Position numbers and translations under genes: made by a program
Part shown: piece after piece, positions 56 through 42,192 of the stretch
How the letters are laid out: every line of letters begins with the position of its first letter
Numbering within the stretch: position 1 is the stretch's first letter
The notes under the pieces: generated by a model
Seen by the model: only the letters and a program-made list of their open reading frames with translations
What the model was told of the DNA's origin: nothing
Database searches by the model: none
IMG/VR virus record: IMGVR_UViG_3300045988_149535
Span: 1 to 42,192 of that record
Reading direction: 5' to 3' (one strand)
Source of the DNA: a virus
DNA: 42,192 nucleotides

Positions 56-2309
56 CGAAGAATTAATAGAAAGTGGAGGAGCTGCTAAGAAAGAAGATAT
101 TATAAATATTAATGCGTCATTGGAACAAATTGATGACAAGAGTTCACAAGCTTTAGGAAAAGCAGAAAATCCACTTGGTGCATTGCGTGAAGCAGGATAT
201 AAAGTTGAAAAGCAAGATTTATCTGAATCTTTATTAAGTGAGATTCAGCAAGCAAATATAACAATTTCTAAAGGGCTATTGAATAATAAAGGAGTTGACT
301 ATCCTTTAAAAGCAGTTACAAGGAATAATGAAATAACACAGATAAATGAGATTTTAAAAAAGGCTATATTAGATGTAAAAGTAATTGGAGCTAAAAAAGG
401 TAAGATTTATCGAATACAATATATAGGAAATGGAACTACAGCATGGGGAGATCCATACTATGGAATTGTTGTTTACGAACATGATAAAGTAAGATTTTCA
501 AGTGATAGCAATGCTAGTATAAAAGCTATAATTAGCAGAGAAGGTAATTATAAAGAGAAGCCAATTGGAATAACAACATGGATATTTAGAAATGATATAG
601 AAGATATAACAGTAAACATAACAATAGATTTTTCATTATTAACTAGAGATAGGTATAATTTAGATGATAAGACAATAGGTTATAGTGCGATAATAGATGA
701 GAGCTGTTATGTTATGACTAACGGAGAGATGATAAACTCAATTTTCATTAATAAAGGTAAAGAGTTTCCATTTAAAACAGTTGATAAAAATGGGGAGTTT
801 TTACCACTTAAAAATGAAGTTAAAATGGGAGTGTTAGATATAAAAGTTATAAATGCTAAAAAAGATAAGTATTATAAAATTGACTGGATAGGAAATGGAA
901 CTACAGCGTGGGGAGAACCTGAATATGCTATTTACTTACAAGAAATTAGTAAGGATTTCTCAAATGTTGTACAAGTTTTTAGTAGATACAATGCTCATTT
1001 AGATGCACCAACTGATACAATATGTACAAGAATAATAACTGCACCTAAAACAGATATAGTACTATCAATAACTATAGATTATAATGAATTAAAATCTGAA
1101 AGTTATACCATGAATAGTACAAATTCATATGGATATAGCACTATAATAGATGAGAGTTGTTATATTTATAAAACGGATAATGATGTAGATAAAACAAAGA
1201 TGACTTTAAGTAAAAAAGGAGATAATTATTTTATAAAGTCACCTTATGATGATGAAAAAAATATAGTTTGGAAGTTCAGTAGTCTGGGTATAAACGAAGT
1301 TTTGCATCCGACAGCAATATATTTTCAACCTATAGATAGTGTTGAGTTTTATGACTTGGAGTTGTTTCAAGCTATAAGTACAGATTGGATTAGTCCATAT
1401 AATTTTAGTGCAAAAAATAATACTGTGAATACTTCTATGATAACCACAGGTGGAAACCATGGTACTAATAGTGGGGCAGGTTTTAGAACTGCATATCCAG
1501 AATTTAAAAAATGTTATATAGATAATAACGAAATAGTGGATGATGGTGTATATTCTAATATAGATTGTATCGTATTAGAAGCTAAAACAAATGTAGCTAG
1601 TTCTAATGTTATTAATTTAGAAACAGGGGAAGGTTTTAGGGGGGTTATAACTGAATTTTTAACATATACAATAACTCCTAGAACCATAAAGGCAATAGTG
1701 ACTATTTTATGTAACGAAAATGTTGTTTTTAGAACATATGCAGGGCCACAAATAAGTGGACTTGCAAACCCATATAAAAATATTTCTTTTGGTGGTGATT
1801 TAAACCCACAAAAATTTGATACTTTCCCATTAAGTTATAGAACATCATCAAAAAATGATGGTGCTTTTGTAGATAGATTTGTATGCGAACATGATAATGG
1901 TTATGTTGTAGCATATAAAGAAAAAGAAGTTGATATAAATGATTTAAGGTATTTTGATGATAACACTGGAATAGGTCAAATAAGTGGTAGTAAAGCTTAT
2001 ATGAAGAACTTCGAAAATAAACCAACAGATTTCAATCAAGGTGATACTTTCTCCTATAACTGTATTTATAGTTTTAATAAAAAATACGAGTGTGAAGGTA
2101 GTATGAGAGCTTATAAAGTTGATGATATTTATATAGCTGACTTTGATAAAAGTAGTTCAAATACTTTCTTTAAAATTGATAAAGAAGATATAAATAAAAA
2201 AGTTGAGGTAATAGATTCTAGTAATGTAAGTATAGATAATTATTCATCTAGCTTGGGAGTCAAATTAACTGCTGCTGATAAAGGGTGGATTAAATTTAGG
2301 TTAATTTAG
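1..2309 (+). CDS. Tail fibre / receptor-binding protein, 3' part of the junction-spanning gene (first full codon at base 3)
   Basis: Frame is open from base 3 to TAA 2307-2309 and is in phase with 41762-42137. The TTG at 120 in the ORF track is therefore not the real start. It is the last gene of the tail module, directly before the lysis cassette. Confidence 0.85.
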   Translation, partial: LEALDNKIIEAGQVKQETEELIESGGAAKKEDIININASLEQIDDKSSQALGKAENPLGALREAGYKVEKQDLSESLLSEIQQANITISKGLLNNKGVDYPLKAVTRNNEITQINEILKKAILDVKVIGAKKGKIYRIQYIGNGTTAWGDPYYGIVVYEHDKVRFSSDSNASIKAIISREGNYKEKPIGITTWIFRNDIEDITVNITIDFSLLTRDRYNLDDKTIGYSAIIDESCYVMTNGEMINSIFINKGKEFPFKTVDKNGEFLPLKNEVKMGVLDIKVINAKKDKYYKIDWIGNGTTAWGEPEYAIYLQEISKDFSNVVQVFSRYNAHLDAPTDTICTRIITAPKTDIVLSITIDYNELKSESYTMNSTNSYGYSTIIDESCYIYKTDNDVDKTKMTLSKKGDNYFIKSPYDDEKNIVWKFSSLGINEVLHPTAIYFQPIDSVEFYDLELFQAISTDWISPYNFSAKNNTVNTSMITTGGNHGTNSGAGFRTAYPEFKKCYIDNNEIVDDGVYSNIDCIVLEAKTNVASSNVINLETGEGFRGVITEFLTYTITPRTIKAIVTILCNENVVFRTYAGPQISGLANPYKNISFGGDLNPQKFDTFPLSYRTSSKNDGAFVDRFVCEHDNGYVVAYKEKEVDINDLRYFDDNTGIGQISGSKAYMKNFENKPTDFNQGDTFSYNCIYSFNKKYECEGSMRAYKVDDIYIADFDKSSSNTFFKIDKEDINKKVEVIDSSNVSIDNYSSSLGVKLTAADKGWIKFRLI
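264..1169 (+). repeat. Internal tandem duplication of a ~150-aa domain within the tail fibre
   Basis: Unit 1 (264-716) and unit 2 (735-1169) share LDVKVIGAKKGKIYRIQYIGNGTTAWGDPYYGI / LDIKVINAKKDKYYKIDWIGNGTTAWGEPEYAI. Both end in GYSxIIDESCY. Confidence 0.85.
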
Positions 2310-2330
2310 AATAGAATAATGAGAATTTCA

Positions 2331-2357
2331 AGAGTAGTGAAAGCTAGTCTTTTTTTT
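2331..2357 (+). terminator. Weak intrinsic terminator after the tail fibre gene
   Basis: Imperfect hairpin agagtag/ctagtct (one G-G mismatch) followed by a T8 run. Confidence 0.4.
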
Positions 2358-2387
2358 ATATAAAAATTTAAGGAAAGGAGGAAATTT

Positions 2388-2621
2388 ATGAATGACGAAT
2401 TAATAAAACATCAACTTGAAACACATAACAGAAGATTAAATAATCATTCAGAGAGATTAGATGAATTAGAGAGAGGAAGAGCTGCAACTGATGTTAAAAT
2501 GGATAATCTTTGTGAAAAGCTTGAAGCACAAACAAAGAGTATAAATTGGCTTATAGGAATAATGGCAAGCAGTTTAATAGGGTTCTTTTTTTATGTAATT
2601 CAAACAGGAATATTTAAATAA
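2388..2621 (+). CDS. xhlA: XhlA-like lysis-associated membrane protein
   Basis: 77 aa with an N-terminal coiled coil (RLNNHSERLDELERGR) and a single C-terminal TM segment (WLIGIMASSLIGFFFYVI). AGGAGG RBS. Lies directly upstream of the holin and endolysin, as in PBSX-type lysis cassettes. Confidence 0.7.
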   Translation: MNDELIKHQLETHNRRLNNHSERLDELERGRAATDVKMDNLCEKLEAQTKSINWLIGIMASSLIGFFFYVIQTGIFK

Positions 2622-2641
2622 GAAAGGTGAAGTGAATAAAA

Positions 2642-2893
2642 ATGAGTAAAGTATTAAAATCTATCGTAACAAGATTAAATAATAAAGGGACTATATTATC
2701 TTTAGCAGCATTAATAGTAAGCCTATTAGTGCAATTTGGATTAAATATAGATTCAGAAAAAATTACAGGAATTATAAATACTATATGTAGTATTTTAATT
2801 TTACTAGGAGTATTAAATGATCCAACACAAAATACAAAAGCTTATATACCAGGTATAAGTGATAAATTAATAGAAACTAAGGAGCAGGAGTAA
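2642..2893 (+). CDS. Holin (two predicted TM helices)
   Basis: 83 aa with hydrophobic segments ILSLAALIVSLLVQFGL and IINTICSILILLGVL and a polar C-terminus. Lies immediately upstream of the endolysin. Confidence 0.75.
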   Translation: MSKVLKSIVTRLNNKGTILSLAALIVSLLVQFGLNIDSEKITGIINTICSILILLGVLNDPTQNTKAYIPGISDKLIETKEQE

Positions 2894-2948
2894 TATCTTG
2901 CTCCTTTTAATTTATAAAAGTTTTAAATATGAAAGGTGGAATTTTTAA

Positions 2949-3716
2949 ATGGCGTTAATTAAAAATTTAATACCAGGAAGTCAATACTCAACTAAGTGTC
3001 CTTATTTAATGACACCGAAAGGAATCTGTATTCATAATACAGCAAATGATGCTCCAGCTATAAATGAAAGAAATTATATGGCTAGAGCAGATAATCAAAA
3101 TGAAGTATCATTTCACATAGCAGTAGATGACAATCAAGCTATACAATGTATTCCATTAAATAGAAACGCTTGGCATGCAGGAGATGGAGGAAGTGGACAA
3201 GGAAATAGAAATTATATAGCAGTAGAAATTTGTTATTCAAGATCTGGTGGAGAGAGATTTATAAAAGCAGAGCAAAGAGCAGCAAAAGAAGTAGCAGCAT
3301 TATTAAAAGAATATGGATGGAATATTAATAATGTAAAAAAACATCAAGATTTTAGTAATAAATATTGTCCTCATAGAACATTAGATATGGGATGGCAAAG
3401 ATTCTTAAACATGGTTCAAATAGAATTAAATAATTTAAATATTAATCAATATATTAAGGAGGAAATTAAAGTGGATTATATAATTCAATATTCAAATTCA
3501 ACAGATCAGGCTATAGCGGAGATAATGGCAGATAGATTAAATTGTCCTACTATTAATTGTTTAAGACCATATGCTTTCTATGGACAATATAAAACAGTAA
3601 TTGCAGTAGGAGAGGCTAAGAATAAAAGTGGATATACTAATGTAGAAATAAAGGGAGCTAATAGAAAAGAAACATTAGATAAAGCTATAGAGTATTGTGA
3701 AAAATTAGGAAAGTAG
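2949..3716 (+). CDS. Endolysin: N-acetylmuramoyl-L-alanine amidase (Amidase_2/PGRP fold) with a clostridial-type C-terminal domain
   Basis: Motifs CIHNTAN, SFHIAVDD, NAWHAGDG, YIAVEICY and KKHQDFSNKYCPHR are typical of zinc amidases of the T7-lysozyme/PGRP family. Confidence 0.92.
   Translation: MALIKNLIPGSQYSTKCPYLMTPKGICIHNTANDAPAINERNYMARADNQNEVSFHIAVDDNQAIQCIPLNRNAWHAGDGGSGQGNRNYIAVEICYSRSGGERFIKAEQRAAKEVAALLKEYGWNINNVKKHQDFSNKYCPHRTLDMGWQRFLNMVQIELNNLNINQYIKEEIKVDYIIQYSNSTDQAIAEIMADRLNCPTINCLRPYAFYGQYKTVIAVGEAKNKSGYTNVEIKGANRKETLDKAIEYCEKLGK
3456..3473 (+). promoter_or_regulatory. Internal in-frame Shine-Dalgarno plus GTG inside the endolysin gene (possible secondary translation start for the C-terminal domain, 3471-3716)
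   Basis: AAGGAGG (3456-3462), an 8-nt spacer, then GTG 3471, in frame with the endolysin (codon 175) at the interdomain linker. Confidence 0.5.
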
Positions 3717-3724
3717 TTATTAAG

Positions 3725-3767
3725 GCTAGTAAGTGAGGAATATAACCTTACTTACTAGCTTTTTTTA
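3725..3767 (+). terminator. Strong intrinsic terminator after the lysis cassette
   Basis: 14-bp stem gctagtaagtgagg/ccttacttactagc, 7-nt loop, T8 run. Confidence 0.88.
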
Positions 3768-3920
3768 TTTATGGACAAACTTACCAAAAATATTGTAAAA
3801 TAAAAGAAAGCACTTCCACTCGAATGGAAAAATGCTTTCAAGTATAATAAAGTATTCGATTTATATACTCTTATTATACTTGGTTTATTTATAAAAAACA
3901 AGAGATAATGGAGTGTTAAA

Positions 3921-5948
3921 ATGAATATTAAGTCTAATATTACTAATGTTACAAACAAAAGCATAAAAAAGCTTATAACAATAAACAACTATAAAGAAGG
4001 TATATGCGAATATATATGGAATAGTTTTGATGCAGAAGCTACGGTAGTTGATATAAAATTTATTTATAATGAACTACATGAAATTGAGTCAATTATAATA
4101 TCTGACAATGGAATAGGTATTAATCGTAAAAGTTTAGACAAAACATTTGGGAGCTTGCTTGAATCTATTAAAGAGAATAAAACAAAAGATTTAGATAGTA
4201 ATGTACATGGGCATAAAGGAAAAGGAAGATATTCATTTATTAAGTTTTCAGAAGAAGCTATTTGGAGTACAATATACAACTCAGGATTAAAGAATATGAA
4301 ATACGAAATAAAAATAACAAGGGATAATTGTATAGAGTATATACCAACTGATGAAGAAAAAACATCTGAACATACTGGAACTAAAGTTATATTAAATAAA
4401 GTTAGTTCTATTAATAAAGAAGATTTAAATGGAAAATTTCAAGAATATTTATCAAATAGATTTGCATGGTTTTTATACTTAAAAAAAGGAAAATCAAGCG
4501 AAAGTAAAATAATAGTAAATGGCAAAGAAATAGATTATTTAAAAAATATTGATAGAAATTTTTCAGAGCAAATTATAGAAGTAATAAATGATAATATATT
4601 TACTATTGATGTGATTAAATGGAATCATAAACAAAATGAGTATTTTCATTCTTTCTTTTTAGATGAAAATTTAAATCAAGTATATAAAAATACGACAGGA
4701 TTTAATAATAAATCTTATGCATTTCCACATAATATATACATCAAATCTAATTACTTTAACGATTTTGTTCCAGCCTTACAGAATAATGATGGTCAAGAAG
4801 TATTTAATTTAGATAAAAATCCTAATGATAAAACTTTTATAGAATTAGAGAAAACAATCTATAAATTATTAGAAAGAAAGACTAAAGAGTTTTTGAAATA
4901 TAATGCTAAAAATAAAATAGTTAATCTTGAAGAAAAAGGATACATGCCTAAGTTTAAAGATAATAAATATGAAAAAATTAGGAAGGACGATTTTATAGAG
5001 GTTTTAGAGGAATTACTAGTAATAAAGCCTGATTTATTTAATAGTAAAAAGAGTGATACTAAACTTATATTAGAATTTATTAATTTGATTCTTGATACTG
5101 ATGAAAGGGAGGGAATATTGAATATTATGGATGATTTAATTAAATTAACTCCTGAAGAAAGAGAAAATCTATATAAGGTTTTAAAGAAAACTACATTAAA
5201 GAAAATAATAAGAACAGTTTCATCTATTCAAGACAGACTACAAGTGATTAATATACTTAAAATGTTAGTGTACGAATATGATAAATTTACTAATGAAAGA
5301 GATCATATTCAAGTAATTATTGAAAATAATTATTGGTTATTTGGAGAAGAATATAATATGGTATCTGCTGATAGAGATTTCAATTATTGTAGACAAAAGT
5401 ATCTTGAAATTACGGAAGGGTTTACAAATGAAATAGATAAAAATAAAAATCCTTCTTATAGAAGAAGACCAGATATTTTCATAACAAGAAAAAGACTTGT
5501 TGGATATGCAGAAAGTACTATGAATGAAGAAAATATTATAGTGGAGTTAAAAGCTCCAAATGTTATCATTAATAAGACTATATATAGACAAATCGAAGAT
5601 TATATGGACATTATATCAACAGATGATAAATTCAATAGTCAAATAAGAATTTGGAAATTTATTATAGTAGGAAAAACTTTAGATGAAAACATAAAGAAAG
5701 AGCATAGCAATTGGAGTGATAAAGGGAAACGATTTTTAGTTAAAAAATCAGGTAATTACGAAATATATGCTATGACATGGGACGATTTATTTAAATCATT
5801 TGAATTGAATAATAGATATATTTTAGAAAACTTAGATATTGATACTGAAAAATTGTCTCTAGAAATAGGTGATAATAAAATAAAGGATAAAGAGTTTGTT
5901 GATTCATTGGTTAAAGATATTATAGATATGAAGAATGAGTTAGTATAG
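3921..5948 (+). CDS. GHKL (Bergerat-fold) ATPase fused to a DUF4263/Shedu(SduA)-like PD-(D/E)XK nuclease domain; candidate prophage-encoded defence protein
   Basis: N-terminal motifs: EYIWNSFDAEA (N box ExxxNxxDA, aa 30-40), SDNGIGI (DxGxG, aa 61-67) and GHKGKGRYSF (G2 box, aa 97-106). C-terminal motifs: NYWLFGEEY (aa 470-478), RRRPD518IFI, IIVE542LK544AP and RQIEDY, which is the layout of a D...ExK nuclease core. GGAG RBS. Confidence 0.8.
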   Translation: MNIKSNITNVTNKSIKKLITINNYKEGICEYIWNSFDAEATVVDIKFIYNELHEIESIIISDNGIGINRKSLDKTFGSLLESIKENKTKDLDSNVHGHKGKGRYSFIKFSEEAIWSTIYNSGLKNMKYEIKITRDNCIEYIPTDEEKTSEHTGTKVILNKVSSINKEDLNGKFQEYLSNRFAWFLYLKKGKSSESKIIVNGKEIDYLKNIDRNFSEQIIEVINDNIFTIDVIKWNHKQNEYFHSFFLDENLNQVYKNTTGFNNKSYAFPHNIYIKSNYFNDFVPALQNNDGQEVFNLDKNPNDKTFIELEKTIYKLLERKTKEFLKYNAKNKIVNLEEKGYMPKFKDNKYEKIRKDDFIEVLEELLVIKPDLFNSKKSDTKLILEFINLILDTDEREGILNIMDDLIKLTPEERENLYKVLKKTTLKKIIRTVSSIQDRLQVINILKMLVYEYDKFTNERDHIQVIIENNYWLFGEEYNMVSADRDFNYCRQKYLEITEGFTNEIDKNKNPSYRRRPDIFITRKRLVGYAESTMNEENIIVELKAPNVIINKTIYRQIEDYMDIISTDDKFNSQIRIWKFIIVGKTLDENIKKEHSNWSDKGKRFLVKKSGNYEIYAMTWDDLFKSFELNNRYILENLDIDTEKLSLEIGDNKIKDKEFVDSLVKDIIDMKNELV

Positions 5949-5970
5949 AGCATATTGAGTTAGTTATAGT

Positions 5971-6000
5971 AAAGCACCCAGAGCAATCTAGGTGCTTTTT
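5971..6000 (+). terminator. Intrinsic terminator of the GHKL-nuclease gene
   Basis: Stem gcaccCag/ctaggtgc (one C-A mismatch), loop agcaat, T5 run. It is a near-identical copy of the terminator at 6159-6185. Confidence 0.85.
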
Positions 6001-6045
6001 GTATTAATAAGGATATAAATAGAGATAAAAAATGCATAAAATAAA

Positions 6046-6074
6046 TTGACACCAATTAAAGGAATAAATATAAT
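6046..6074 (+). promoter_or_regulatory. Perfect-consensus sigma-A type promoter (TTGACA-17-TATAAT)
   Basis: TTGACA 6046-6051, 17-nt spacer, TATAAT 6069-6074. No ORF longer than 3 codons follows. Confidence 0.7.
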
Positions 6075-6080
6075 GAAATG

Positions 6081-6185
6081 GTAATACTTGTTAATAAATC
6101 CATAAAAGCCAGCGGTTAACCTAATACTAAGCTTAACAAGTGTTATATAATTCCCAATAGCACCTAGAGCAATCTAGGTGCTTTT
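6081..6185 (+). ncRNA. Candidate ~105-nt structured small RNA (sRNA-A); 5' end approximate
   Basis: Bounded by the consensus promoter and a terminator. A long stem pairs 6081-6094 with 6133-6146 (core acttgttaa/ttaacaagt). The only ORF is ATG-AAA-TGG-TAA. Confidence 0.55.
6159..6185 (+). terminator. Intrinsic terminator of sRNA-A (27-nt copy of 5973-5999 with 1 mismatch)
   Basis: Perfect 9-bp stem agcacctag/ctaggtgct, loop agcaat, T run. Confidence 0.88.
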
Positions 6186-6211
6186 ATAATGTTAAAAATG
6201 TATAAAAAGTA

Positions 6212-6240
6212 TTGAAAACTAATAAAAGAAAAGATAAAAT
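6212..6240 (+). promoter_or_regulatory. Promoter-like element TTGAAA-17-TAAAAT
   Basis: TTGAAA 6212-6217, 17-nt spacer, TAAAAT 6235-6240. AT-rich context, so it could be a chance match. Confidence 0.4.
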
Positions 6241-6289
6241 ATAAATGAAGGTTGAAGGCTTCGTATAAGATTATTATTATTACTAAATG

Positions 6290-6326
6290 AAATATCACTT
6301 AGTTTACAAGAATTAAGTGATATTTT
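6290..6326 (+). terminator. AT-rich 12-bp hairpin with a short T tail (possible end of an ~80-nt transcript, sRNA-B)
   Basis: aaatatcactta / taagtgatattt with a 12-nt loop, followed by ttttg. Confidence 0.4.
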
Positions 6327-6359
6327 GTCGTATATAAGAATAAAATTTGTAGAAAAATA

Positions 6360-6388
6360 TTGACTATAAAAATTAAATAAAATATAAT
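6360..6388 (+). promoter_or_regulatory. Near-consensus promoter TTGACT-17-TATAAT
   Basis: TTGACT 6360-6365, 17-nt spacer, TATAAT 6383-6388. Confidence 0.6.
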
Positions 6389-6394
6389 TTAAGA

Positions 6395-6507
6395 GTATAT
6401 TCGGTATATATTTGGTATATATATTCTCTCTTATAAGGTTAATATTATTTGAATTCTTTAAAATCACTTTGAAATAACACTCAATTTATGTTGGGTGTTA
6501 TTTTTTT
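6395..6507 (+). ncRNA. Candidate ~110-nt small RNA (sRNA-C); 5' end approximate
   Basis: Promoter at 6360-6388 and terminator at 6473-6507. No credible ORF. Contains the direct repeat ggtatatat twice (6403-6420). Confidence 0.45.
6473..6507 (+). terminator. Intrinsic terminator (+ strand)
   Basis: 12-bp stem aataacactcaa/ttgggtgttatt (one G-U pair), loop tttatg, T7 run. Confidence 0.82.
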
Positions 6508-6513
6508 GTATAA

Positions 6514-6541
6514 AGCAAAAAAAGTCGTCCTAAGACGACTT
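6514..6541 (-). terminator. Intrinsic terminator (minus strand), back-to-back with 6473-6507
   Basis: 8-bp stem aagtcgtc/gacgactt with a 4-nt loop. The A7 run on the + strand is a T run on the minus-strand transcript. Confidence 0.7.
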
Positions 6542-6575
6542 ATACATATAATAAAACCTTATATAACCCAAGGAC

Positions 6576-6604
6576 AGAATAGCATTAAAGATTGTAGGTG
6601 TCAA
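6576..6604 (-). promoter_or_regulatory. Minus-strand promoter-like element TTGACA-17-TATTCT
   Basis: The reverse complement reads TTGACA (6604-6599), a 17-nt spacer, then TATTCT (6581-6576). It would give a ~55-nt transcript ending at the 6514-6541 terminator. Confidence 0.35.
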
Positions 6605-6643
6605 TTATTTCTCTTTTTTTGAATTTCAGTAATAAAAAACAGA

Positions 6644-6672
6644 TTGATGTAAGAACATTTGTTTGGTATAAT
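6644..6672 (+). promoter_or_regulatory. Promoter with extended -10 (TTGATG-17-TGgTATAAT)
   Basis: TTGATG 6644-6649, TG at 6664-6665, TATAAT 6667-6672. Points toward the micro-ORFs and the end of int. Confidence 0.6.
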
Positions 6673-6720
6673 TTTCTTGTAAATTGACTTATCACAAGTG
6701 ACAAAAAGGGGAGATATAGA

Positions 6721-6786
6721 ATGAGTAAAGCAGAAAAAGAGCTATATACAATATTATCAAAGGTTTTAAGTAAAAAACATATATAA
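6721..6786 (+). CDS. Micro-ORF, 21 aa (MSKAEKELYTILSKVLSKKHI), paralogue of 9453-9503
   Basis: GGGGAG RBS 7 nt upstream. The first nine codons nearly match the micro-ORF that follows cro. Confidence 0.45.
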   Translation: MSKAEKELYTILSKVLSKKHI

Positions 6787-6854
6787 AAATTTTAATATTT
6801 TTGATATACTCTTATGTGTTAAATTAAATTACTTGTTTAAATGGAGGTATATAA

Positions 6855-6953
6855 ATGATTAAGAATTTTGATAATAAATCTCTTGAAGAGTTAAAAATAG
6901 AAGGAGAAAATAAACTCTTCTTTATTCATACGTTCGGATGTCCGTTAGTATAA
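6855..6953 (+). CDS. Micro-ORF, 32 aa (MIKNFDNKSLEELKIEGENKLFFIHTFGCPLV); looks like a truncated N-terminus of a Cys-motif protein
   Basis: GGAGG RBS. The ORF stops right after GCPLV. It converges on the end of int and overlaps the candidate attP core. Confidence 0.4.
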   Translation: MIKNFDNKSLEELKIEGENKLFFIHTFGCPLV

Positions 6954-6955
6954 AA
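6924..6955. other. Candidate attP core for the serine integrase (imperfect inverted repeat around the central TG at 6939-6940)
   Basis: The left arm attcatacgttcgga and the reverse complement of the right arm tccgttagtataaaa match at 10 of 15 positions, with the cgga/tccg core perfect. Lies immediately downstream of int. Confidence 0.25.
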
Positions 6956-6985
6956 AAAGAGGATTTTCTTTAATAAGAAAACCCT
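6951..6985 (-). terminator. Intrinsic terminator of the integrase gene (minus strand)
   Basis: Minus-strand hairpin agggttttc/gaaaatcct (one G-U pair) that includes the int stop codon, followed by a T7 run. Confidence 0.7.
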
Positions 6986-8583
6986 ATATTTAAGCCATTC
7001 TTGAATGTGATAGATGTTATTTTTTTATCTAATATATAAATTTCTTTAATAAATGAATTAAAAAATTCTTTTAAAGATTCTCTTTTTAATAATTTAATGG
7101 CGGTTTTGTTATCTACGTTTTTTAAGATTATTTCATTCAAAACTGTATTTAATAATATGGTATCTAATTTTATTTCTTCACTATCTTTATTTTCTAATTT
7201 CATTTCTTCATTTATTTTATTTATATTATCCTGTATTTCTTTTTTCTTTAAAACATAGTCTTTGCTAGACATACTATCTTCATCAAACAAATATAATTCT
7301 TCTAATCTTTTTAAAGCTCTTTTATATTTTTCTAATTCTTTAATTTTTAAATCTAAATTAGAACTTTTGTTGTAATTTTTATTATTAAATGAATAGAAAC
7401 CATGCTTTTTATTTATCATAATATCAAATAAATCTTCACATTTTATTTCCTTAACTCCTAGATTTCTAGAAAGTAAATCGATAAATTCTAAATAATCTAT
7501 TCTATTTTTGCTGTTTATAGAACTTATATTTCTAAGTAACGATGTTATAAAATTATATATAATTTTTTCACTAACAGTTTTCTCTTCACAATTATTTTTA
7601 TTATATCTATTGCTACATACGTATAAAGAGGGCCTAAAACCATCTAAGTGAGGTTTATCTTGTTTAGCATAATAATTCCCCATACAAGAACCACATTTTA
7701 TTAAACCAGCAAATATATGTGTTTTCCCATTAGCTCTAAATTTAGAATTACTTCTTAAAGAATTTCTATCCATTATGTCATTACATTTATTGAAAATCTC
7801 TTTAGAAATTATTGGGGGGTGATTATCTTCTAGCACTACCCATTCATCTTCACTTTTCTTCTTGCCTCTAGCAGATTCTCTGTAATTATACCTATAAGTA
7901 CCTATATAGAATGGATTTCTAATTATATCTGTTATAGTTTTAGTAGTCCATCTTCCATTTCTTTTTGTTTTTATATTATTAGCATTTAAAATATTTCTAA
8001 CTATAGAAGTGGATTCTTCTGTTAAATAAGTATTAAATATAAGTTCTATTGTATTTTTTTCTTCTTTGTTTATAATTGGAAACTTAATTTTGCTATCCCA
8101 TTTATAACCTAATGGTATAGGAGAACCGTTCCACATACCTTTACTAGCTCTATCTAACATTACTGATTTAACTCTTTCGCCAGTAAGTTTTCTTTCTAAT
8201 TCAGCAAATACTAATATTATCTTAAGCATAGCTTCACCCATTGCAGAGGAAGTGTCAAATTGTTCATTCTTACTTACAAAGATGCAATTGCATCTTTTTA
8301 ATTCTTCATACATATCACAAAAATCTAATAAATTTCTTGAAATTCTATCTATTTTCCATACTAATAAATGTGAAAACTCGCCAGCTTTTATTCTTTTTAT
8401 CATATCTTGAAAAGCCGGTCTATCTGTATTTTTACCAGAATATCCTGCATCTTCAAAAACCTCATAATTATTTGTATTTAAAATATACTTAGAATAGTTT
8501 ATAAGCTCTTCTCGCTGTAATGGTAAAGAATCCTTATCAATTTGATGATGAGTTGAAACTCTAGTGTAAATTGCTACTTTCAT
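6970..8583 (-). CDS. int: Large serine recombinase (phage integrase)
   Basis: The N-terminus MKVAIYTRVSTHHQ...SLPLQ is a resolvase catalytic domain. This is followed by a recombinase domain, a zinc ribbon (CGSCMGNYY...YVCSNRYNKNNC) and a C-terminal coiled coil. 537 aa. Confidence 0.95.
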   Translation of the reverse strand: MKVAIYTRVSTHHQIDKDSLPLQREELINYSKYILNTNNYEVFEDAGYSGKNTDRPAFQDMIKRIKAGEFSHLLVWKIDRISRNLLDFCDMYEELKRCNCIFVSKNEQFDTSSAMGEAMLKIILVFAELERKLTGERVKSVMLDRASKGMWNGSPIPLGYKWDSKIKFPIINKEEKNTIELIFNTYLTEESTSIVRNILNANNIKTKRNGRWTTKTITDIIRNPFYIGTYRYNYRESARGKKKSEDEWVVLEDNHPPIISKEIFNKCNDIMDRNSLRSNSKFRANGKTHIFAGLIKCGSCMGNYYAKQDKPHLDGFRPSLYVCSNRYNKNNCEEKTVSEKIIYNFITSLLRNISSINSKNRIDYLEFIDLLSRNLGVKEIKCEDLFDIMINKKHGFYSFNNKNYNKSSNLDLKIKELEKYKRALKRLEELYLFDEDSMSSKDYVLKKKEIQDNINKINEEMKLENKDSEEIKLDTILLNTVLNEIILKNVDNKTAIKLLKRESLKEFFNSFIKEIYILDKKITSITFKNGLNIGFSY

Positions 8584-8619
8584 TTTTAAATACCTCCCAT
8601 ATATAAAAGAAAGATGAGA

Positions 8620-9018
8620 TTACTCATCTTCCTCATTTGGTTGAATTATGTAACTTAAATCTGCTTTGATTGCTGCTATAAATAAAGTTTCAGCAACATT
8701 TTTAGGCTCATAATCCTTAAATAAAGAATCTAGGTCATTAACCAGTTTAAGCTCTTTAATTTGTTCAATTACAGTTCTAGTAGATTTTGCAATATCTCTA
8801 GTTTTTCTATATTCTTCATCACTGATTCCATATAACCAATATTCTTCTGGTTTACCTGAATCAGCAACTAGAGAATAAAGAAATTTTTTACTAGGTTTTC
8901 TACTGCCGTTTTCAACCATAGTATAAGCACTAGGAAGAACTTCTAATCTACTAGCCATTTCTTTTTTGTTTAGATTTAACCCTTCTCTATATTCGGTTAA
9001 TCTTTCTGTAAAGTTCAT
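8620..9018 (-). CDS. CI-like repressor (XRE-family HTH, no S24 peptidase domain)
   Basis: ATG at 9018 with a GAGGTG RBS. HTH region: LNLNKKEMASRLEVLPSAYTMVENGSRKPS. Divergent from the cro-like gene. The upstream extension in the ORF track (to 9192) runs through the operators and is rejected. Confidence 0.85.
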   Translation of the reverse strand: MNFTERLTEYREGLNLNKKEMASRLEVLPSAYTMVENGSRKPSKKFLYSLVADSGKPEEYWLYGISDEEYRKTRDIAKSTRTVIEQIKELKLVNDLDSLFKDYEPKNVAETLFIAAIKADLSYIIQPNEEDE

Positions 9019-9036
9019 ATTCAACACCTCGTATTC

Positions 9037-9065
9037 ATTATATAATAACTTCACATTTTTGTAAA
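9037..9065 (-). promoter_or_regulatory. Repressor promoter (minus strand) TTTACA-17-TATAAT
   Basis: The reverse complement reads TTTACA (9065-9060), a 17-nt spacer, then TATAAT (9042-9037), just upstream of the cI RBS. Confidence 0.6.
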
Positions 9066-9068
9066 GCA

Positions 9069-9088
9069 AATTCACAAAATAGTACATT
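9069..9088. promoter_or_regulatory. Operator O1 (imperfect): AATTCAC-N6-GTACATT
   Basis: Shares gcaaattcacaaaa with O3. The right half-site has 2 mismatches. Abuts the -35 of the repressor promoter. Confidence 0.55.
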
Positions 9089-9112
9089 CTAATACTGAAA
9101 ATGGTTCGACGA

Positions 9113-9132
9113 AATTCACGGAAACGTGAATT
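9113..9132. promoter_or_regulatory. Operator O2: perfect palindrome AATTCAC-ggaaac-GTGAATT
   Basis: Perfect 7+7 inverted repeat with a 6-nt spacer in the cI/cro intergenic region. Confidence 0.75.
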
Positions 9133-9209
9133 AATTTGAAGAAATTTAAAGGAAAACCAAGTAAAATAAGAATATATTGCTATTTTGAGCAAATATGATT
9201 AAAAAAGCA

Positions 9210-9229
9210 AATTCACAAAAGTGTGAATT
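9210..9229. promoter_or_regulatory. Operator O3: perfect palindrome AATTCAC-aaaagt-GTGAATT
   Basis: Same half-sites as O2. Overlaps the -35 and spacer of the cro promoter. Confidence 0.75.
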
Positions 9230-9240
9230 GGTGATATTAT
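9212..9240 (+). promoter_or_regulatory. Early rightward promoter TTCACA-17-TGaTATTAT
   Basis: TTCACA 9212-9217 and TATTAT 9235-9240, with a TG extended -10 at 9232-9233. Drives cro and the early operon. Confidence 0.6.
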
Positions 9241-9263
9241 GAATGTGCGAGGAGGTGAAGGGG

Positions 9264-9452
9264 ATGACACTTAAGGAAATGCGATTAGAAAGTGGTCTTA
9301 AAGCTAATAAGATAGCTGAGAAATTAAACATTTCCAGAAGGCAACTTGTTAATTTAGAACAAAAGAAATTCAAGCTTTCGGAAGATAAAGTTGAAATTCT
9401 ATCAAAACTTTATGAGAAAGATAAAGAAGAGATAAGAAAGGCTGGAAAGTAA
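9264..9452 (+). CDS. Cro-like XRE-family HTH regulator
   Basis: ATG 9264 preceded by GAGGAGGTGAAGGGG, which favours it over ATG 9243. HTH region: LKANKIAEKLNISRRQLVNLEQ. Confidence 0.85.
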   Translation: MTLKEMRLESGLKANKIAEKLNISRRQLVNLEQKKFKLSEDKVEILSKLYEKDKEEIRKAGK

Positions 9453-9503
9453 ATGAGTGAAGCAGAAAGAAAATTATATGAATTATTAAAGAAGGTGGCT
9501 TAA
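9453..9503 (+). CDS. Micro-ORF, 16 aa (MSEAERKLYELLKKVA), paralogue of 6721-6786
   Basis: Starts 1 nt after the cro stop and ends where the next ORF starts. Confidence 0.4.
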   Translation: MSEAERKLYELLKKVA

Positions 9504-9641
9504 ATGGATATGAAAGCAATAGAAGGTTTTCTGATAAATATATGTGGTTATAAATCTATTGAAGATGCCAAGGAAAATTATAAGCCTTTAAATTTTTATC
9601 CTTTAATAGGAGAAATTGATTTTAAAAAGGAGGAGAAGTAA
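9504..9641 (+). CDS. Hypothetical protein, 45 aa
   Basis: ATG 9504 abuts the preceding stop. Its TAA overlaps the ATG of the next gene (TAATG). Too short to appear in the ORF track. Confidence 0.5.
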   Translation: MDMKAIEGFLINICGYKSIEDAKENYKPLNFYPLIGEIDFKKEEK

Positions 9642-10414
9642 TGAATAATTTAATAAAAATTAATGGATTAGTAAATATTGAAGGAATGCAATTCCATAAC
9701 ATAGAAGGTGGATTTGGTAAAGGTAAGAAAGCAATGTTAGCTAAAGAAATTGCTGAAATACACGGAAGAGAGCTAAAGTTTATAAATCAAAATATTAATA
9801 GAAATATAAAAAGATTTACAGAAGGGCTTGATATTGTTGATTTAAAAGGAACTCAATTCGAGGTAACTTTGAGCAACCACGGAATTTATACTCAAAATTC
9901 AATAAATGCAAGTAATAATATCTATTTATTATCAGAAAGAGGATACTCAAAACTTCTTAAAATTTTAGAAGATGATGTTGCTTGGGAGCAATATGAAAAG
10001 TTGGTTGATGGATATTTTAATATGAGGGGACAAGCCTTAAATACATCTAAATTATCTAAAGAACTTCAAGCAATATTAATGTTAGATGAGAAAACTGTTG
10101 AAATGGATAATAGAATAACAACTCTAGAAGAAAGAATGACAATAGAAACAGGAGCGCAAAAAGTTTTGCAAGATTTAGTTAATAAAAAGGTAATGGCTAT
10201 ATTAGGTGGTAAAGATAGTCCAGCTTATAAGGAGTTAGGTAATAAGACATTTAGACAATGTTGGAAGAACTTTAAAGATATTTTACAAGTAGCTTCTTAT
10301 AAAGATACACCAGTAAAGGACTTTGATTTAGCAAAGAAAACAATAATAGATTGGCAACCTAATAGAGAGCTAGAGTTGATGATAATGGGTTGTAATGCTC
10401 AAATAAGAATGTAG
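9641..10414 (+). CDS. ORF6N/ORF6C-domain protein (antirepressor-like)
   Basis: The N-terminus LIKINGLVNIEGMQFHNIEGGFGKGKKAMLAKEIAEIHGRELKFINQNINRN is typical of the ORF6N domain. The C-terminal part resembles ORF6C. AGGAGGAG RBS. Confidence 0.8.
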   Translation: MNNLIKINGLVNIEGMQFHNIEGGFGKGKKAMLAKEIAEIHGRELKFINQNINRNIKRFTEGLDIVDLKGTQFEVTLSNHGIYTQNSINASNNIYLLSERGYSKLLKILEDDVAWEQYEKLVDGYFNMRGQALNTSKLSKELQAILMLDEKTVEMDNRITTLEERMTIETGAQKVLQDLVNKKVMAILGGKDSPAYKELGNKTFRQCWKNFKDILQVASYKDTPVKDFDLAKKTIIDWQPNRELELMIMGCNAQIRM

Positions 10415-11311: not shown

Positions 11312-11860
11312 ATGGTTAAAACTGAAGATCATTTAGGCTTAGCTAGAAAAGTAGCTTTTGAATATTATAGACATTCAAAAGGTAAATACACATATGATGA
11401 ATTAGAATCAACTGCATATATGGGTTTAATTAAAGCTGCGAATAACTTTGATGAATCTAAGGGATTTACGTTTGCAACTTATGCAATGTCAACAATAATA
11501 GGCGAAGTTAAAAGGATGTTTAGAGACGATAAATGGTATTTTGTAAAACGTAATGTACCTCAAAAAATGCTTTCTTTAAATTTTGTAATAGATAATACAA
11601 ACAATATAGAAATGCAAGAAACATTAATAGATGAAGGAAATGTTGAGGAGAATTTAATTAACTCAGTATTAGTTTCTGAGCTCTTTAAGTTACTAACTCC
11701 AAGAGAAAAGCAAGTGATTTATTTATATTATTATATGGACTTAAGTCAATCTGAGATTTCAAAGAATACAGGGATGTCTCAACCTAATATAAGTAGAACA
11801 ATTAAAAACTCATTAAAGAAAATGAGGAATGAATTATATAATGATAAATTTTTAGCTTAA
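11312..11860 (+). CDS. Sigma-70 family RNA polymerase sigma factor (regions 2 and 4)
   Basis: Region 2-like: YMGLIKAANNFDESKGFTFATYAMSTIIGEVKRMFRD. Region 4 HTH: LTPREKQVIYLYYYMDLSQSEISKNTGMSQPNISRTIKNSLKKMR. Confidence 0.88.
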   Translation: MVKTEDHLGLARKVAFEYYRHSKGKYTYDELESTAYMGLIKAANNFDESKGFTFATYAMSTIIGEVKRMFRDDKWYFVKRNVPQKMLSLNFVIDNTNNIEMQETLIDEGNVEENLINSVLVSELFKLLTPREKQVIYLYYYMDLSQSEISKNTGMSQPNISRTIKNSLKKMRNELYNDKFLA

Positions 11861-21236: not shown

Positions 21237-21509
21237 ATGAAATATGTTCATCCAAAAGAATATAAAGGTGTAAAGTTTAATACTGAAAGAAATCAAATAA
21301 GAATGAGAGCAATAGTAGAAGAGTATTGTTTAAAATGTGATTTGTTTATGGGAAAAGAGCATGATTTTTCAGAGTGCCGAATGGCTGATAAATGGAAAGA
21401 TGGGAGAGTGATTGCAAAGAAAACTTGTCCTTTTAAGTCTTTGGGGGTACCGATAGATATAGAAACACTTAAATACTCATGCATTAAATATGAGGTTGAG
21501 GAGGAATAG
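21237..21509 (+). CDS. Hypothetical Cys-containing protein
   Basis: GAGGAGG RBS. Confidence 0.6.
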   Translation: MKYVHPKEYKGVKFNTERNQIRMRAIVEEYCLKCDLFMGKEHDFSECRMADKWKDGRVIAKKTCPFKSLGVPIDIETLKYSCIKYEVEEE

Positions 21510-21510
21510 G

Positions 21511-22146
21511 ATGAGATATAAGTTTAAGGAAAAAGAGTTGAAGGAGATACTAAATAAAATTGTGATATTAGTTGATACGAGAGAGCAGGCTAATGAACAT
21601 ATAACAACATGGTTTGATAAGAAAAAGAAAAAGTATGAGTTCCAGGCTTTAGATTATGGAGATTATAGTTGCTATCTACCGGCTGGATCGTTTGAGGGAC
21701 AAACTAGGGATATATATTTTACTGATGATATAGTTATAGAGCGTAAATTCTGTATAGATGAATTAGCTATGAATTTAAAGGATAATAAGACAAATATTAA
21801 TGAGATTACTCAAGAGATAGTTGACTTACTAGGTGAAGAATATTTGAAGAAGGTATTAAAAACTGATTATAACAGGCTTAAATATGAGTTCGCTAATATG
21901 AATAGATATGGAGTTAAGTTTTTCATCTTCATAGAGGATAAGAACTTTGATGAAAATATAAGAAATCAGAATTATAGAGCGCAATATAATCCAGTAAATT
22001 TATATGCTAGATTAAAAGGTTTAGAAAGTGAGTTTGATACTATAATAAGGCCAACAGATAAAACTGCAATGGGAAGCGAGATATATAACACTATTAAATA
22101 TTCTGTAAGAGATGTATTCAAAAATAAGGGATATTTGGAGGAGTAA
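21511..22146 (+). CDS. ERCC4-type (XPF/Mus81-like) nuclease domain protein
   Basis: VILVDTREQ...LDYGDYSC...IVIERKFCIDELAMNL matches the ERCC4 signature (DxRE ... GDY ... ERK..xDL). ATG 21511 follows GAGGAGG. Confidence 0.75.
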   Translation: MRYKFKEKELKEILNKIVILVDTREQANEHITTWFDKKKKKYEFQALDYGDYSCYLPAGSFEGQTRDIYFTDDIVIERKFCIDELAMNLKDNKTNINEITQEIVDLLGEEYLKKVLKTDYNRLKYEFANMNRYGVKFFIFIEDKNFDENIRNQNYRAQYNPVNLYARLKGLESEFDTIIRPTDKTAMGSEIYNTIKYSVRDVFKNKGYLEE

Positions 22147-41761: not shown

Positions 41762-42192
41762 ATGGCTAGTAAAATAAGTATAGATTTAGATACTTCAAAA
41801 GAAAATTATTTAGTGTCTAAATGTAAGCAAAATGATGATTTAGAGCTAGAGGCATTTATACACGATAAAGGATTAGAATTAGATTTAACTAATAAAGAAA
41901 TAACTATACAAGCTTTAAAAGCGGATAATACTTATATTATTCAGAATACAGATATAGTTAAAGAAAATAATAAAATTACAGCTAATCTCGTAAAAGATTT
42001 TACGAGAGTGCCAGGAGAAACAAAAATAGAAATAGTTTTAGTAGAGAGTAGTAAGCAGAATACTACTTTTTCTTTTTATCTAGAAGTTGTAGGAAGTGTA
42101 ATAAGAGGAGCAGTACAAAGTTCTAATACTGCAACTATATTAGAAGCTTTAGATAATAAGATAATAGAAGCGGGGCAAGTTAAGCAAGAAAC
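41762..42192 (+). CDS. Tail fibre / baseplate upper protein (BppU-like N-terminus), 5' part; continues in frame at base 3 once the 55-bp overlap is collapsed
   Basis: ATG 41762 after GAGG, with no stop before the window end. Joined to 1-2309 it gives one 2685-nt gene (894 aa). MASKISIDLDTSKENY...TFSFYLEV resembles BppU-type N-termini. Confidence 0.8.
   Translation, partial: MASKISIDLDTSKENYLVSKCKQNDDLELEAFIHDKGLELDLTNKEITIQALKADNTYIIQNTDIVKENNKITANLVKDFTRVPGETKIEIVLVESSKQNTTFSFYLEVVGSVIRGAVQSSNTATILEALDNKIIEAGQVKQE
42138..42192. repeat. Terminal direct repeat copy 2 (identical to 1-55)
   Basis: Same 55-mer as bases 1-55. This is either a circular-contig overlap or a terminal redundancy. Confidence 0.97.

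Follow-up and report, generated by a model that had tools for sequence, protein, structure and literature searches.

Proteins in which a GHKL ATPase is joined to a nuclease of the PD-(D/E)xK type have been described before. The paraMORC3 proteins, defined in 2008, consist of a GHKL domain, an S5 domain and a C-terminal restriction endonuclease (RE)-fold domain with an E-D-ExK signature; they are prevalent in Proteobacteria and Bacteroidetes, and paraMORC genes lie mainly in restriction-modification (R-M) neighbourhoods, with stand-alone paraMORC3 genes lacking an R-M context also noted by Iyer et al. (PMC2292703). In a PSI-BLAST census of DUF4263, Gu et al. placed fusions with HATPase_c_3 and a middle domain ("N24") in Shedu type 1D; 121 of the Shedu genes that they counted lay in prophages (10.1101/2023.08.10.552793). 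For canonical SduA, the ends of DNA are the distinguishing cue (10.1101/2023.08.10.552762). VcSduA (VC_00276 of Vibrio cholerae A1552), a GHKL+DUF4263 protein encoded on VSP-II, confers protection from T1-like phages on Escherichia coli and from phage X29 on V. cholerae; defence is lost in the E27A (ATPase) and K557A (nuclease) mutants, protection is seen at all multiplicities of infection (MOIs) without growth arrest and is hence not abortive, a dimer but not a tetramer is modelled with confidence, and about 1.2% of genomes encode a homolog (Adams et al., Nat Microbiol 2025, PMC12137116). Here we analyse a gene for a 675-amino-acid (aa) protein of the same architecture in the virus record IMGVR_UViG_3300045988_149535, the whole of which (42,192 nucleotides, nt) is called the window below. 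The protein is 100% identical to WP_271846227.1, "ATP-binding protein [Clostridium tertium]", and is matched end to end by phrog_6203 (E = 8e-59). We propose, with a probability of roughly 0.75, that it is an ATP-dependent single-protein nuclease of the GHKL plus PD-(D/E)xK class that acts against phages and other foreign DNA.

Domain architecture of the 675-aa protein

The gene and the domains that it encodes are the following.

3921..5948, plus strand: gene for the 675-aa GHKL ATPase/PD-(D/E)xK nuclease fusion (paraMORC3 / Shedu type I-D-like), an open reading frame (ORF) with an ATG start
3996..4400, plus strand: GHKL (Bergerat-fold) ATPase domain with motifs I-IV, residues about 26-160, located with Pfam HATPase_c_3
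4428..4820, plus strand: alpha/beta middle (transducer-like) domain, residues about 170-300, located with the AlphaFold2 model and Foldseek
4821..5330, plus strand: helical linker, residues about 301-470, taken from the AlphaFold2 model at the lower confidence of a predicted local distance difference test score (pLDDT) of 52-80
5331..5840, plus strand: PD-(D/E)xK nuclease domain, residues about 471-640, located by invariant catalytic residues, homolog profiles and a domain model

The N-terminal part of the protein matches Pfam HATPase_c_3 (PF13589) across residues 26-136 with 55 bits against a cut-off of 25 (E = 1.1e-14), and the same profile is matched by all of the 40 homologs (38-81% identity to the 675-aa protein) that were aligned for the analysis of conservation. 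In this alignment the residues of the four GHKL motifs are invariant, namely E30, N34 and D37 in motif I (EYIWNSFDAEA), D62, G64 and G66 in motif II (SDNGIGI), G97, G100 and G102 in motif III (GHKGKGRYSF) and G153-T154 in motif IV, the last being additional to the boxes listed in the preliminary description of the locus. This conservation shows the predicted site of ATP binding and hydrolysis to be intact. A search of the PDB with the family profile retrieves PMS1, MLH1, MutL and Topo VI-B. Equivalence to any of the known GHKL proteins for which equivalog models were tried was rejected, the scores being far under the cut-offs for MutL (21 bits versus 180), for the two Top6B equivalogs of NCBIfam (24.2 versus 274 and 19.4 versus 380.7) and for MzaB (13.3 versus 850).

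The full-length AlphaFold2 model has a pLDDT of about 76, with values mostly of 80-94 across residues 110-280. Foldseek aligns 330-450 columns of it to the N-terminal plus middle domains of TRAP1, Hsp90 and GRP94 and to the N-terminal fragment of MutL (E about 1e-11); the GHKL domain is, according to the model, followed by an S5/transducer-type middle domain, as it is in paraMORC3. The helices of the linker are modelled at residues 304-338, 349-368, 377-407, 411-451 and 459-469. The preliminary description, made from the letters of the sequence, had the two catalytic domains linked by about 250 helical residues. The model replaces this with roughly 310 residues, which comprise the alpha/beta middle domain (about 170-300) and some 170 helical residues (300-470).

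The C-terminal catalytic residues E476 (NYWLFGEEY), D518 (RRRPDIF), E542 and K544 (VELKAP) and Q557 and Y561 (QIEDY) are likewise invariant in the 40 homologs, which shows a putative metal-dependent E-D-ExK nuclease site to be intact. HSDR_N_2 is matched by 24 of the 40 homologs (best E = 2e-5) and, below threshold, by the 675-aa protein (E = 0.0028). Since the Foldseek results of the full-length model were dominated by GHKL matches and hence uninformative on the nuclease, the C-terminal domain (residues 436-675) was modelled separately, with a pLDDT of 75.7. This model matches restriction-fold, PD-(D/E)xK-type nucleases exclusively, none of them strongly: FokI (E = 3.7e-3) is followed by Cap4, MspJI, EcoO109I and McrC. 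We firmly assign the C-terminal domain to the PD-(D/E)xK nucleases. The preliminary description thus placed the ORF, the Bergerat boxes and the D...ExK residues correctly, and its reading of the gene as a GHKL ATPase fused to a PD-(D/E)xK nuclease is borne out by the HATPase_c_3 match, the invariant motifs, the profiles of the homologs and the fold matches.

Relation of the nuclease domain to SduA

Whether the nuclease domain belongs with DUF4263, the domain of SduA, is a separate matter. Five of the 40 homologs match the Pfam profile SduA_C (PF14082; best E = 3.6e-6) along positions 5-158 of its 159, with 25.3-27.7 bits at a cut-off of 27; the lone homolog above the cut-off (27.7 bits) shares 41% identity with the 675-aa protein. 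The SduA model of PADLOC gives weak matches to 11 of the 40 homologs (best E = 0.002), and proteobacterial relatives match HSDR_N_2 or PDDEXK_9 rather than SduA_C. Compared with the separate C-terminal model, E. coli SduA (8ps5_A) is a weak match at rank 11 (E = 0.1; template modelling (TM) score 0.42; 242 columns; 17% identity); among the leading Foldseek matches it has the top query TM-score and the top identity, and the second-longest alignment. When the C-terminal domain that scored best with SduA_C was compared with plasmids by tblastn (E ≤ 10), almost only matches annotated as "ATP-binding protein" or unannotated were obtained, and none labelled DUF4263 or Shedu. The full-length family profile retrieved no SduA chain from the PDB at E ≤ 1. 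We regard the link of the nuclease domain to DUF4263 as remote and of borderline strength.

Insulation and exchange of the cassette

The elements around the gene are the following.

3722..3772, plus strand: intrinsic terminator that closes the lysis operon and is the left insulator of the gene, with a 17-bp stem, a 7-nt loop and a U-run (terminator scan and fold)
3772..3801, plus strand: candidate sigma-70-type promoter TGGACA-18-TAAAAT, 10/12 (consensus match only)
3910..3914, plus strand: ribosome-binding site GGAGT, 7 nt 5' of the ATG (read from the sequence)
5974..6003, plus strand: terminator hairpin that is the right insulator, with a 10-bp stem containing one C/A mismatch, a GCAA loop and UUUUU (fold)
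Upstream of the gene: XhlA, holin and Amidase_2 endolysin
6970-8583, minus strand: large serine recombinase, downstream of the gene

The hairpin of the upstream terminator (3722-3762) folds with -24 kcal/mol (z = -6.97), and none of 200 shuffled sequences was equally stable. The downstream hairpin (5974-5998) has -14.5 kcal/mol and z = -4.23. The preliminary description had called both terminators strong; this holds for the upstream one, while the downstream one is real and only moderate, because a C/A mismatch interrupts its stem and it was missed by the consensus terminator scan. The two hairpins show a gene that is predicted to be transcriptionally insulated from the late lysis operon.

A second C. 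tertium prophage carries the same cassette (locus L083, positions 812-3932, equivalent to window 3702-6610) after an Amidase_3 instead of an Amidase_2 endolysin, the gene being 99.5% and the non-coding region after it 88% identical. The homology starts at window position 3702, within the last few codons of the lysin, which puts the left boundary of recombination at the lysin 3' end. As the same cassette follows a different lysin, the terminator-gene-terminator unit appears to move between phages. This second copy is integrated in a C. tertium genome, and beyond its match to the window come host type-IV-pilus genes; the crossover in the phage attachment site (attP) is placed near window 6600-6612, because there the homology stops and the host genes begin. 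The flanking genes and this junction confirm the slot between the endolysin and the attP/integrase region in which the gene had preliminarily been located. We infer that the gene is cargo adjoining attP that would be expressed in the lysogen. Its G+C content is 23.6%, versus 29.1% for the phage.

A homolog with 43% identity has the same slot in Clostridioides difficile, where XhlA, holin, an Amidase_3 endolysin, the gene, the prophage end and host genes follow one another. The arrangement was seen in several distinct myovirus-type prophages (L091-L094, gene at 8001-10031), and dozens of C. difficile contigs are listed as encoding the homolog; it was not found among the isolated phage genomes in INPHARED.

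Distribution and genomic contexts of the family

Homologs that keep the length and the architecture of the 675-aa protein abound. Two peptide patterns of the family have matches in more than 259 species-representative genomes, mostly of Bacteroidota and Clostridia; Bacteroidota predominate among the close homologs, and clusters at 90% identity around two other family members number more than 650 and more than 1,000. Homologs were found on 39 plasmids, including those of Streptomyces, rhizobia, Salmonella and Psychrobacter, and on 34 viral contigs of IMG/VR, where about 13 of the 29 full-length cases lie at most 3 kb from a contig end. Only two of 50,697 isolated phage genomes have one, both of them Pasteurella phages. 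The Pasteurella phage protein is collinear with the 675-aa protein over the full length (26% identity, E = 4e-41) and keeps the catalytic residues, and proteobacterial members in general share 23-27% identity with it. In phage Pmp14 the 652-aa homolog (L084, 5932-7890) is an insert among the tail genes, with the tail chaperone region on one side and the tape-measure gene on the other, a moron position unlike that in the Clostridial phages. No V. cholerae protein was among the 120 matches listed for three queries (the 675-aa protein, a homolog from a "Citrobacter" metagenome-assembled genome and the Pmp14 homolog).

Across 78 species loci no neighbouring gene is conserved, the largest cluster of neighbours being present in 6 of them, and the gene consequently behaves as a single-gene system; with its own terminators and no conserved partner it is the stand-alone gene that had been supposed. 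One 79%-identical homolog lies in a small island that contains AntA. On plasmid pGal_E78 of Phaeobacter gallaeciensis (L086, 2918-4906) the gene for a 662-aa homolog begins before the stop of a type ISP R-M gene, so that the two overlap.

Proposed function and its alternatives

We propose that the 675-aa protein defends the lysogen by cutting DNA. By analogy with VcSduA, MutL, MORC, Topo VI-B and Hsp90 it would form a homodimer, in which the binding of ATP would dimerise the N-terminal GHKL gates and close a cavity, formed by the middle domain and the linker, around DNA; the hydrolysis of ATP would then license or position the C-terminal nuclease for cutting the invading DNA. The lysogen, and hence the prophage, would be protected directly rather than by suicide. 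Foreign DNA would be recognised, as our leading guess, by its free ends, the cue used by canonical SduA. No methyltransferase, which would have pointed to discrimination by modification, and no R-M gene turned up when the phage ORFs were scanned, with small ORFs and a few others of unassigned function not excluded. We hold the details of gating with less confidence than the assignment to nuclease-based defence.

Several points weigh against this proposal. The 675-aa protein has no match to PF14082 at E ≤ 1 and no match of any kind in PADLOC-DB 2.0. The fold match to SduA is not significant, FokI, Cap4 and MspJI being better by E-value, and both structure models, with pLDDT of about 76, are of moderate confidence. 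The C-terminal profile of the family retrieves no chain from the PDB at E ≤ 10, and so no SduA. The same profile finds 1,210 representatives among 1.84 billion proteins, and the 150 of these that are listed are without exception proteins of about 650-700 aa with a GHKL fusion, or fragments; the nuclease domain therefore appears as a clade of its own that is coupled to GHKL. The homology to VcSduA is putative, being suggested by shared architecture and motifs, and VcSduA is the sole member of the class to have been tested. Dimerisation, dependence on ATP, the kind of substrate and expression during lysogeny are inferences. The candidate promoter at 3772..3801 is weak evidence, because the AT-rich region shows no clear excess of promoter-like sites (47 found versus 37.5 expected).

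In the light of these points, the arrangement typical of DUF4263 that the preliminary description had read from the motifs is undetectable in the 675-aa protein by direct profile search: of the searches that it named, PF13589 gave a match, PF14082 and PADLOC none. Its label "Shedu-like" stands as far as the published type I-D architecture class is concerned, whereas the link to SduA itself is weak, with no PF14082 match, SduA_C matches in 5 of 40 homologs and a structural comparison that did find 8ps5_A, at the top TM-score of 0.42, and only at rank 11 with E = 0.1. Its remark that no functional work on a GHKL-fused form was known is outdated by VcSduA (2025, PMC12137116) and, for the architecture, by the definition of 2008 (PMC2292703).

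One alternative is that the clade of Clostridia and Bacteroidota is not true Shedu but arose independently, when a MORC-like clamp was fused to a PD-(D/E)xK domain of another kind, one that profile searches cannot join to SduA, and that it has another mode of sensing. We consider this unlikely; if it were the case, sensing of ends might be replaced by an ATP-driven, MORC-like topological entrapment or compaction of incoming DNA, and the mobile cassette, possibly co-regulated with the small-RNA candidate at 6046-6186 (see below), might mediate exclusion between prophage and phage in the gut. A variant of the defence model is abortive infection, in which the nuclease would act as a toxic effector, degrade all DNA and kill the infected lysogen. 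Some Shedu members (e.g. PD-T4-8) have been proposed to be abortive (cited in 10.1101/2023.08.10.552793), and the PD-(D/E)xK domain has no evident module for sequence specificity. Such a role is nevertheless unlikely, since VcSduA, the lone GHKL-type member tested, protects at all MOIs without arresting growth (PMC12137116) and canonical SduA tells DNAs apart by their ends (10.1101/2023.08.10.552762).

That the protein is instead an accessory motor of an R-M system, its GHKL module looping or translocating DNA for a host-encoded R-M enzyme, as originally proposed for paraMORCs, would agree with the mainly R-M-associated neighbourhoods of paraMORC genes (PMC2292703) and with the Phaeobacter plasmid, whose homolog and type ISP R-M genes overlap. 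We think it very unlikely: the 78 species loci have no conserved neighbour, the scanned phage ORFs include no R-M gene or methyltransferase, the gene is flanked by terminators and encodes an intact nuclease of its own, VcSduA works alone in E. coli (PMC12137116), and Iyer et al. themselves noted stand-alone paraMORC3 genes (PMC2292703). GHKL domains are also paired with nucleases in MutL and in type II topoisomerases, and RIIA and topoisomerase subunits are examples of GHKL proteins in phages, from which one could picture a role in the lytic cycle, either as a MutL- or topoisomerase-like helper of repair, recombination or packaging or in degrading host DNA for nucleotides. This is the least probable of the explanations considered, given that the gene lies outside the replication/recombination module and is separated from the late operon by the -24 kcal/mol terminator, that the cassette is swapped between phages with different lysins, that most related phages lack the gene (only two of the 50,697 isolated phage genomes give a match), and that it is common in chromosomal and plasmid contexts unrelated to phages. 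Direct, nuclease-based defence of the lysogen remains the function that we favour.

The phage and the region downstream of the gene

The carrier is a temperate C. tertium siphovirus. The window is a circular assembly of its genome (about 42.1 kb): its two terminal stretches of 55 nt (1-55 and 42138-42192) are identical, which, read as an assembler overlap, indicates a circular contig, and a human-gut contig in ENA is a circular permutation of the window. The listed ORF at 120-2309 is the 3' part of a gene for an 894-aa tail-fibre-like protein that spans the junction (L081, 5705-8389). One further group of features belongs to the setting of the gene.

12-22 kb of the window: replication/recombination module with ERF, SSB and ERCC4

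The ERCC4-type (XPF/Mus81-like) nuclease of the early region is encoded at 21490-22146 (plus strand); ERF, DUF1351, SSB and YopX are found in the same region, together with a sigma-70-family factor at 11312-11860.

Between the 675-aa gene and attP, the segment 6046-6186 (plus strand) opens with a perfect sigma-70 promoter (TTGACA-17-TATAAT, 12/12), which is followed by a candidate structured transcript of about 105 nt. Its stem of 13-14 bp pairs 6081-6094 with 6133-6146, and a perfect 10-bp hairpin terminator at 6159-6182 ends it; the candidate folds with -30 kcal/mol (z = -4.9). No known RNA family was found in an Rfam search of window 3600-7100. A small RNA encoded here is possible, as judged from these signals. 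The hairpins at 5974-5998 and 6159-6182 are near-identical direct repeats (26/27 nt, 185 nt apart), and the integrated copy in L083 carries the promoter segment (window 6026-6100) twice; the repeated hairpins and the doubled segment suggest local duplication or recombination in the intergenic region. Two tiny ORFs of 21 and 32 aa (6722-6787 and 6856-6954, plus strand) lie between attP and the stop of the integrase gene, and the larger one, which public annotations include as a gene (L081, 12935-13033), ends in a hairpin at 6960-6985.

Significance

The architecture is already known from paraMORC3 and type I-D Shedu, and the 675-aa gene is a fairly ordinary further example of it. The mechanistic question is the same as for VcSduA, that is, how GHKL gates the nuclease and what is sensed, and no new one is opened. 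Modestly new are the recurrent slot after the lysin and next to the attachment site in Clostridial prophages, the exchange of the cassette between prophages, and the finding that standard annotation misses the clade. The gene adds a putative prophage-borne example from a Gram-positive organism to a class of defence proteins of which one, that of V. cholerae, has been tested. The class recurrently occupies the cargo slot between lysin and attachment site in prophages of C. tertium and C. difficile, gut and clinical Clostridia under consideration for phage therapy. The gap in annotation has three parts, since RefSeq labels the product "ATP-binding protein", PADLOC-DB 2.0 makes no call and the protein stays under the SduA_C threshold of Pfam; the system is therefore probably under-counted where the defences of Clostridia and Bacteroidota are inventoried.

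Comparison with known systems

Every feature of paraMORC3 that was tested for is found in the 675-aa protein and its family: the GHKL domain, the S5-like middle domain, the RE-fold domain with E-D-ExK and the wide, patchy distribution. The difference lies in the setting, as paraMORC3 genes are mostly linked to R-M systems and the 675-aa gene is carried by Clostridia prophages without such a link. The linkage in Phaeobacter is operonic, as Iyer et al. described for paraMORCs, in contrast to the stand-alone Clostridial genes. The protein also fits the type I-D architecture of Shedu, with an N-terminus of the HATPase_c type, a linked middle domain and a C-terminal nuclease, the link of that nuclease to DUF4263 being borderline.

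With VcSduA the protein shares a single polypeptide of similar size, GHKL motifs I-IV, a clamp-like middle domain and a C-terminal PD-(D/E)xK domain. The catalytic lysine is near position 550 in both (K557 in VcSduA, K544 here), the motif I glutamate is E27 in VcSduA and E30 here, and VcSduA too is encoded by a stand-alone gene on a mobile island. The two differ in that VcSduA is reported to match DUF4263 and the 675-aa protein does not, and in the carrier, a genomic island in the one case and a prophage of a Gram-positive anaerobe in the other.

Canonical SduA (Bacillus cereus B4264; E. coli, PDB codes: 8PS4 and 8PS5) lacks an ATPase and begins with a small domain that binds nucleic acid; it is a tetramer, senses DNA ends and does not need ATP, and profile searches that start from the GHKL-nuclease family do not reach it. 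It is similar in being a single-protein defence with a variable N-terminal sensor, in the order of a helical linker and a C-terminal PD-(D/E)xK domain, and in its weak fold match to the C-terminal 240 residues of the 675-aa protein. MutL, MORC, Topo VI-B and Hsp90 have other C-terminal domains and no role in defence, the MutL endonuclease not being of the PD-(D/E)xK type; what they have in common with the 675-aa protein is the Bergerat ATP site followed by a middle domain, and it is from them that the model of ATP-driven N-terminal dimerisation proposed here is taken.

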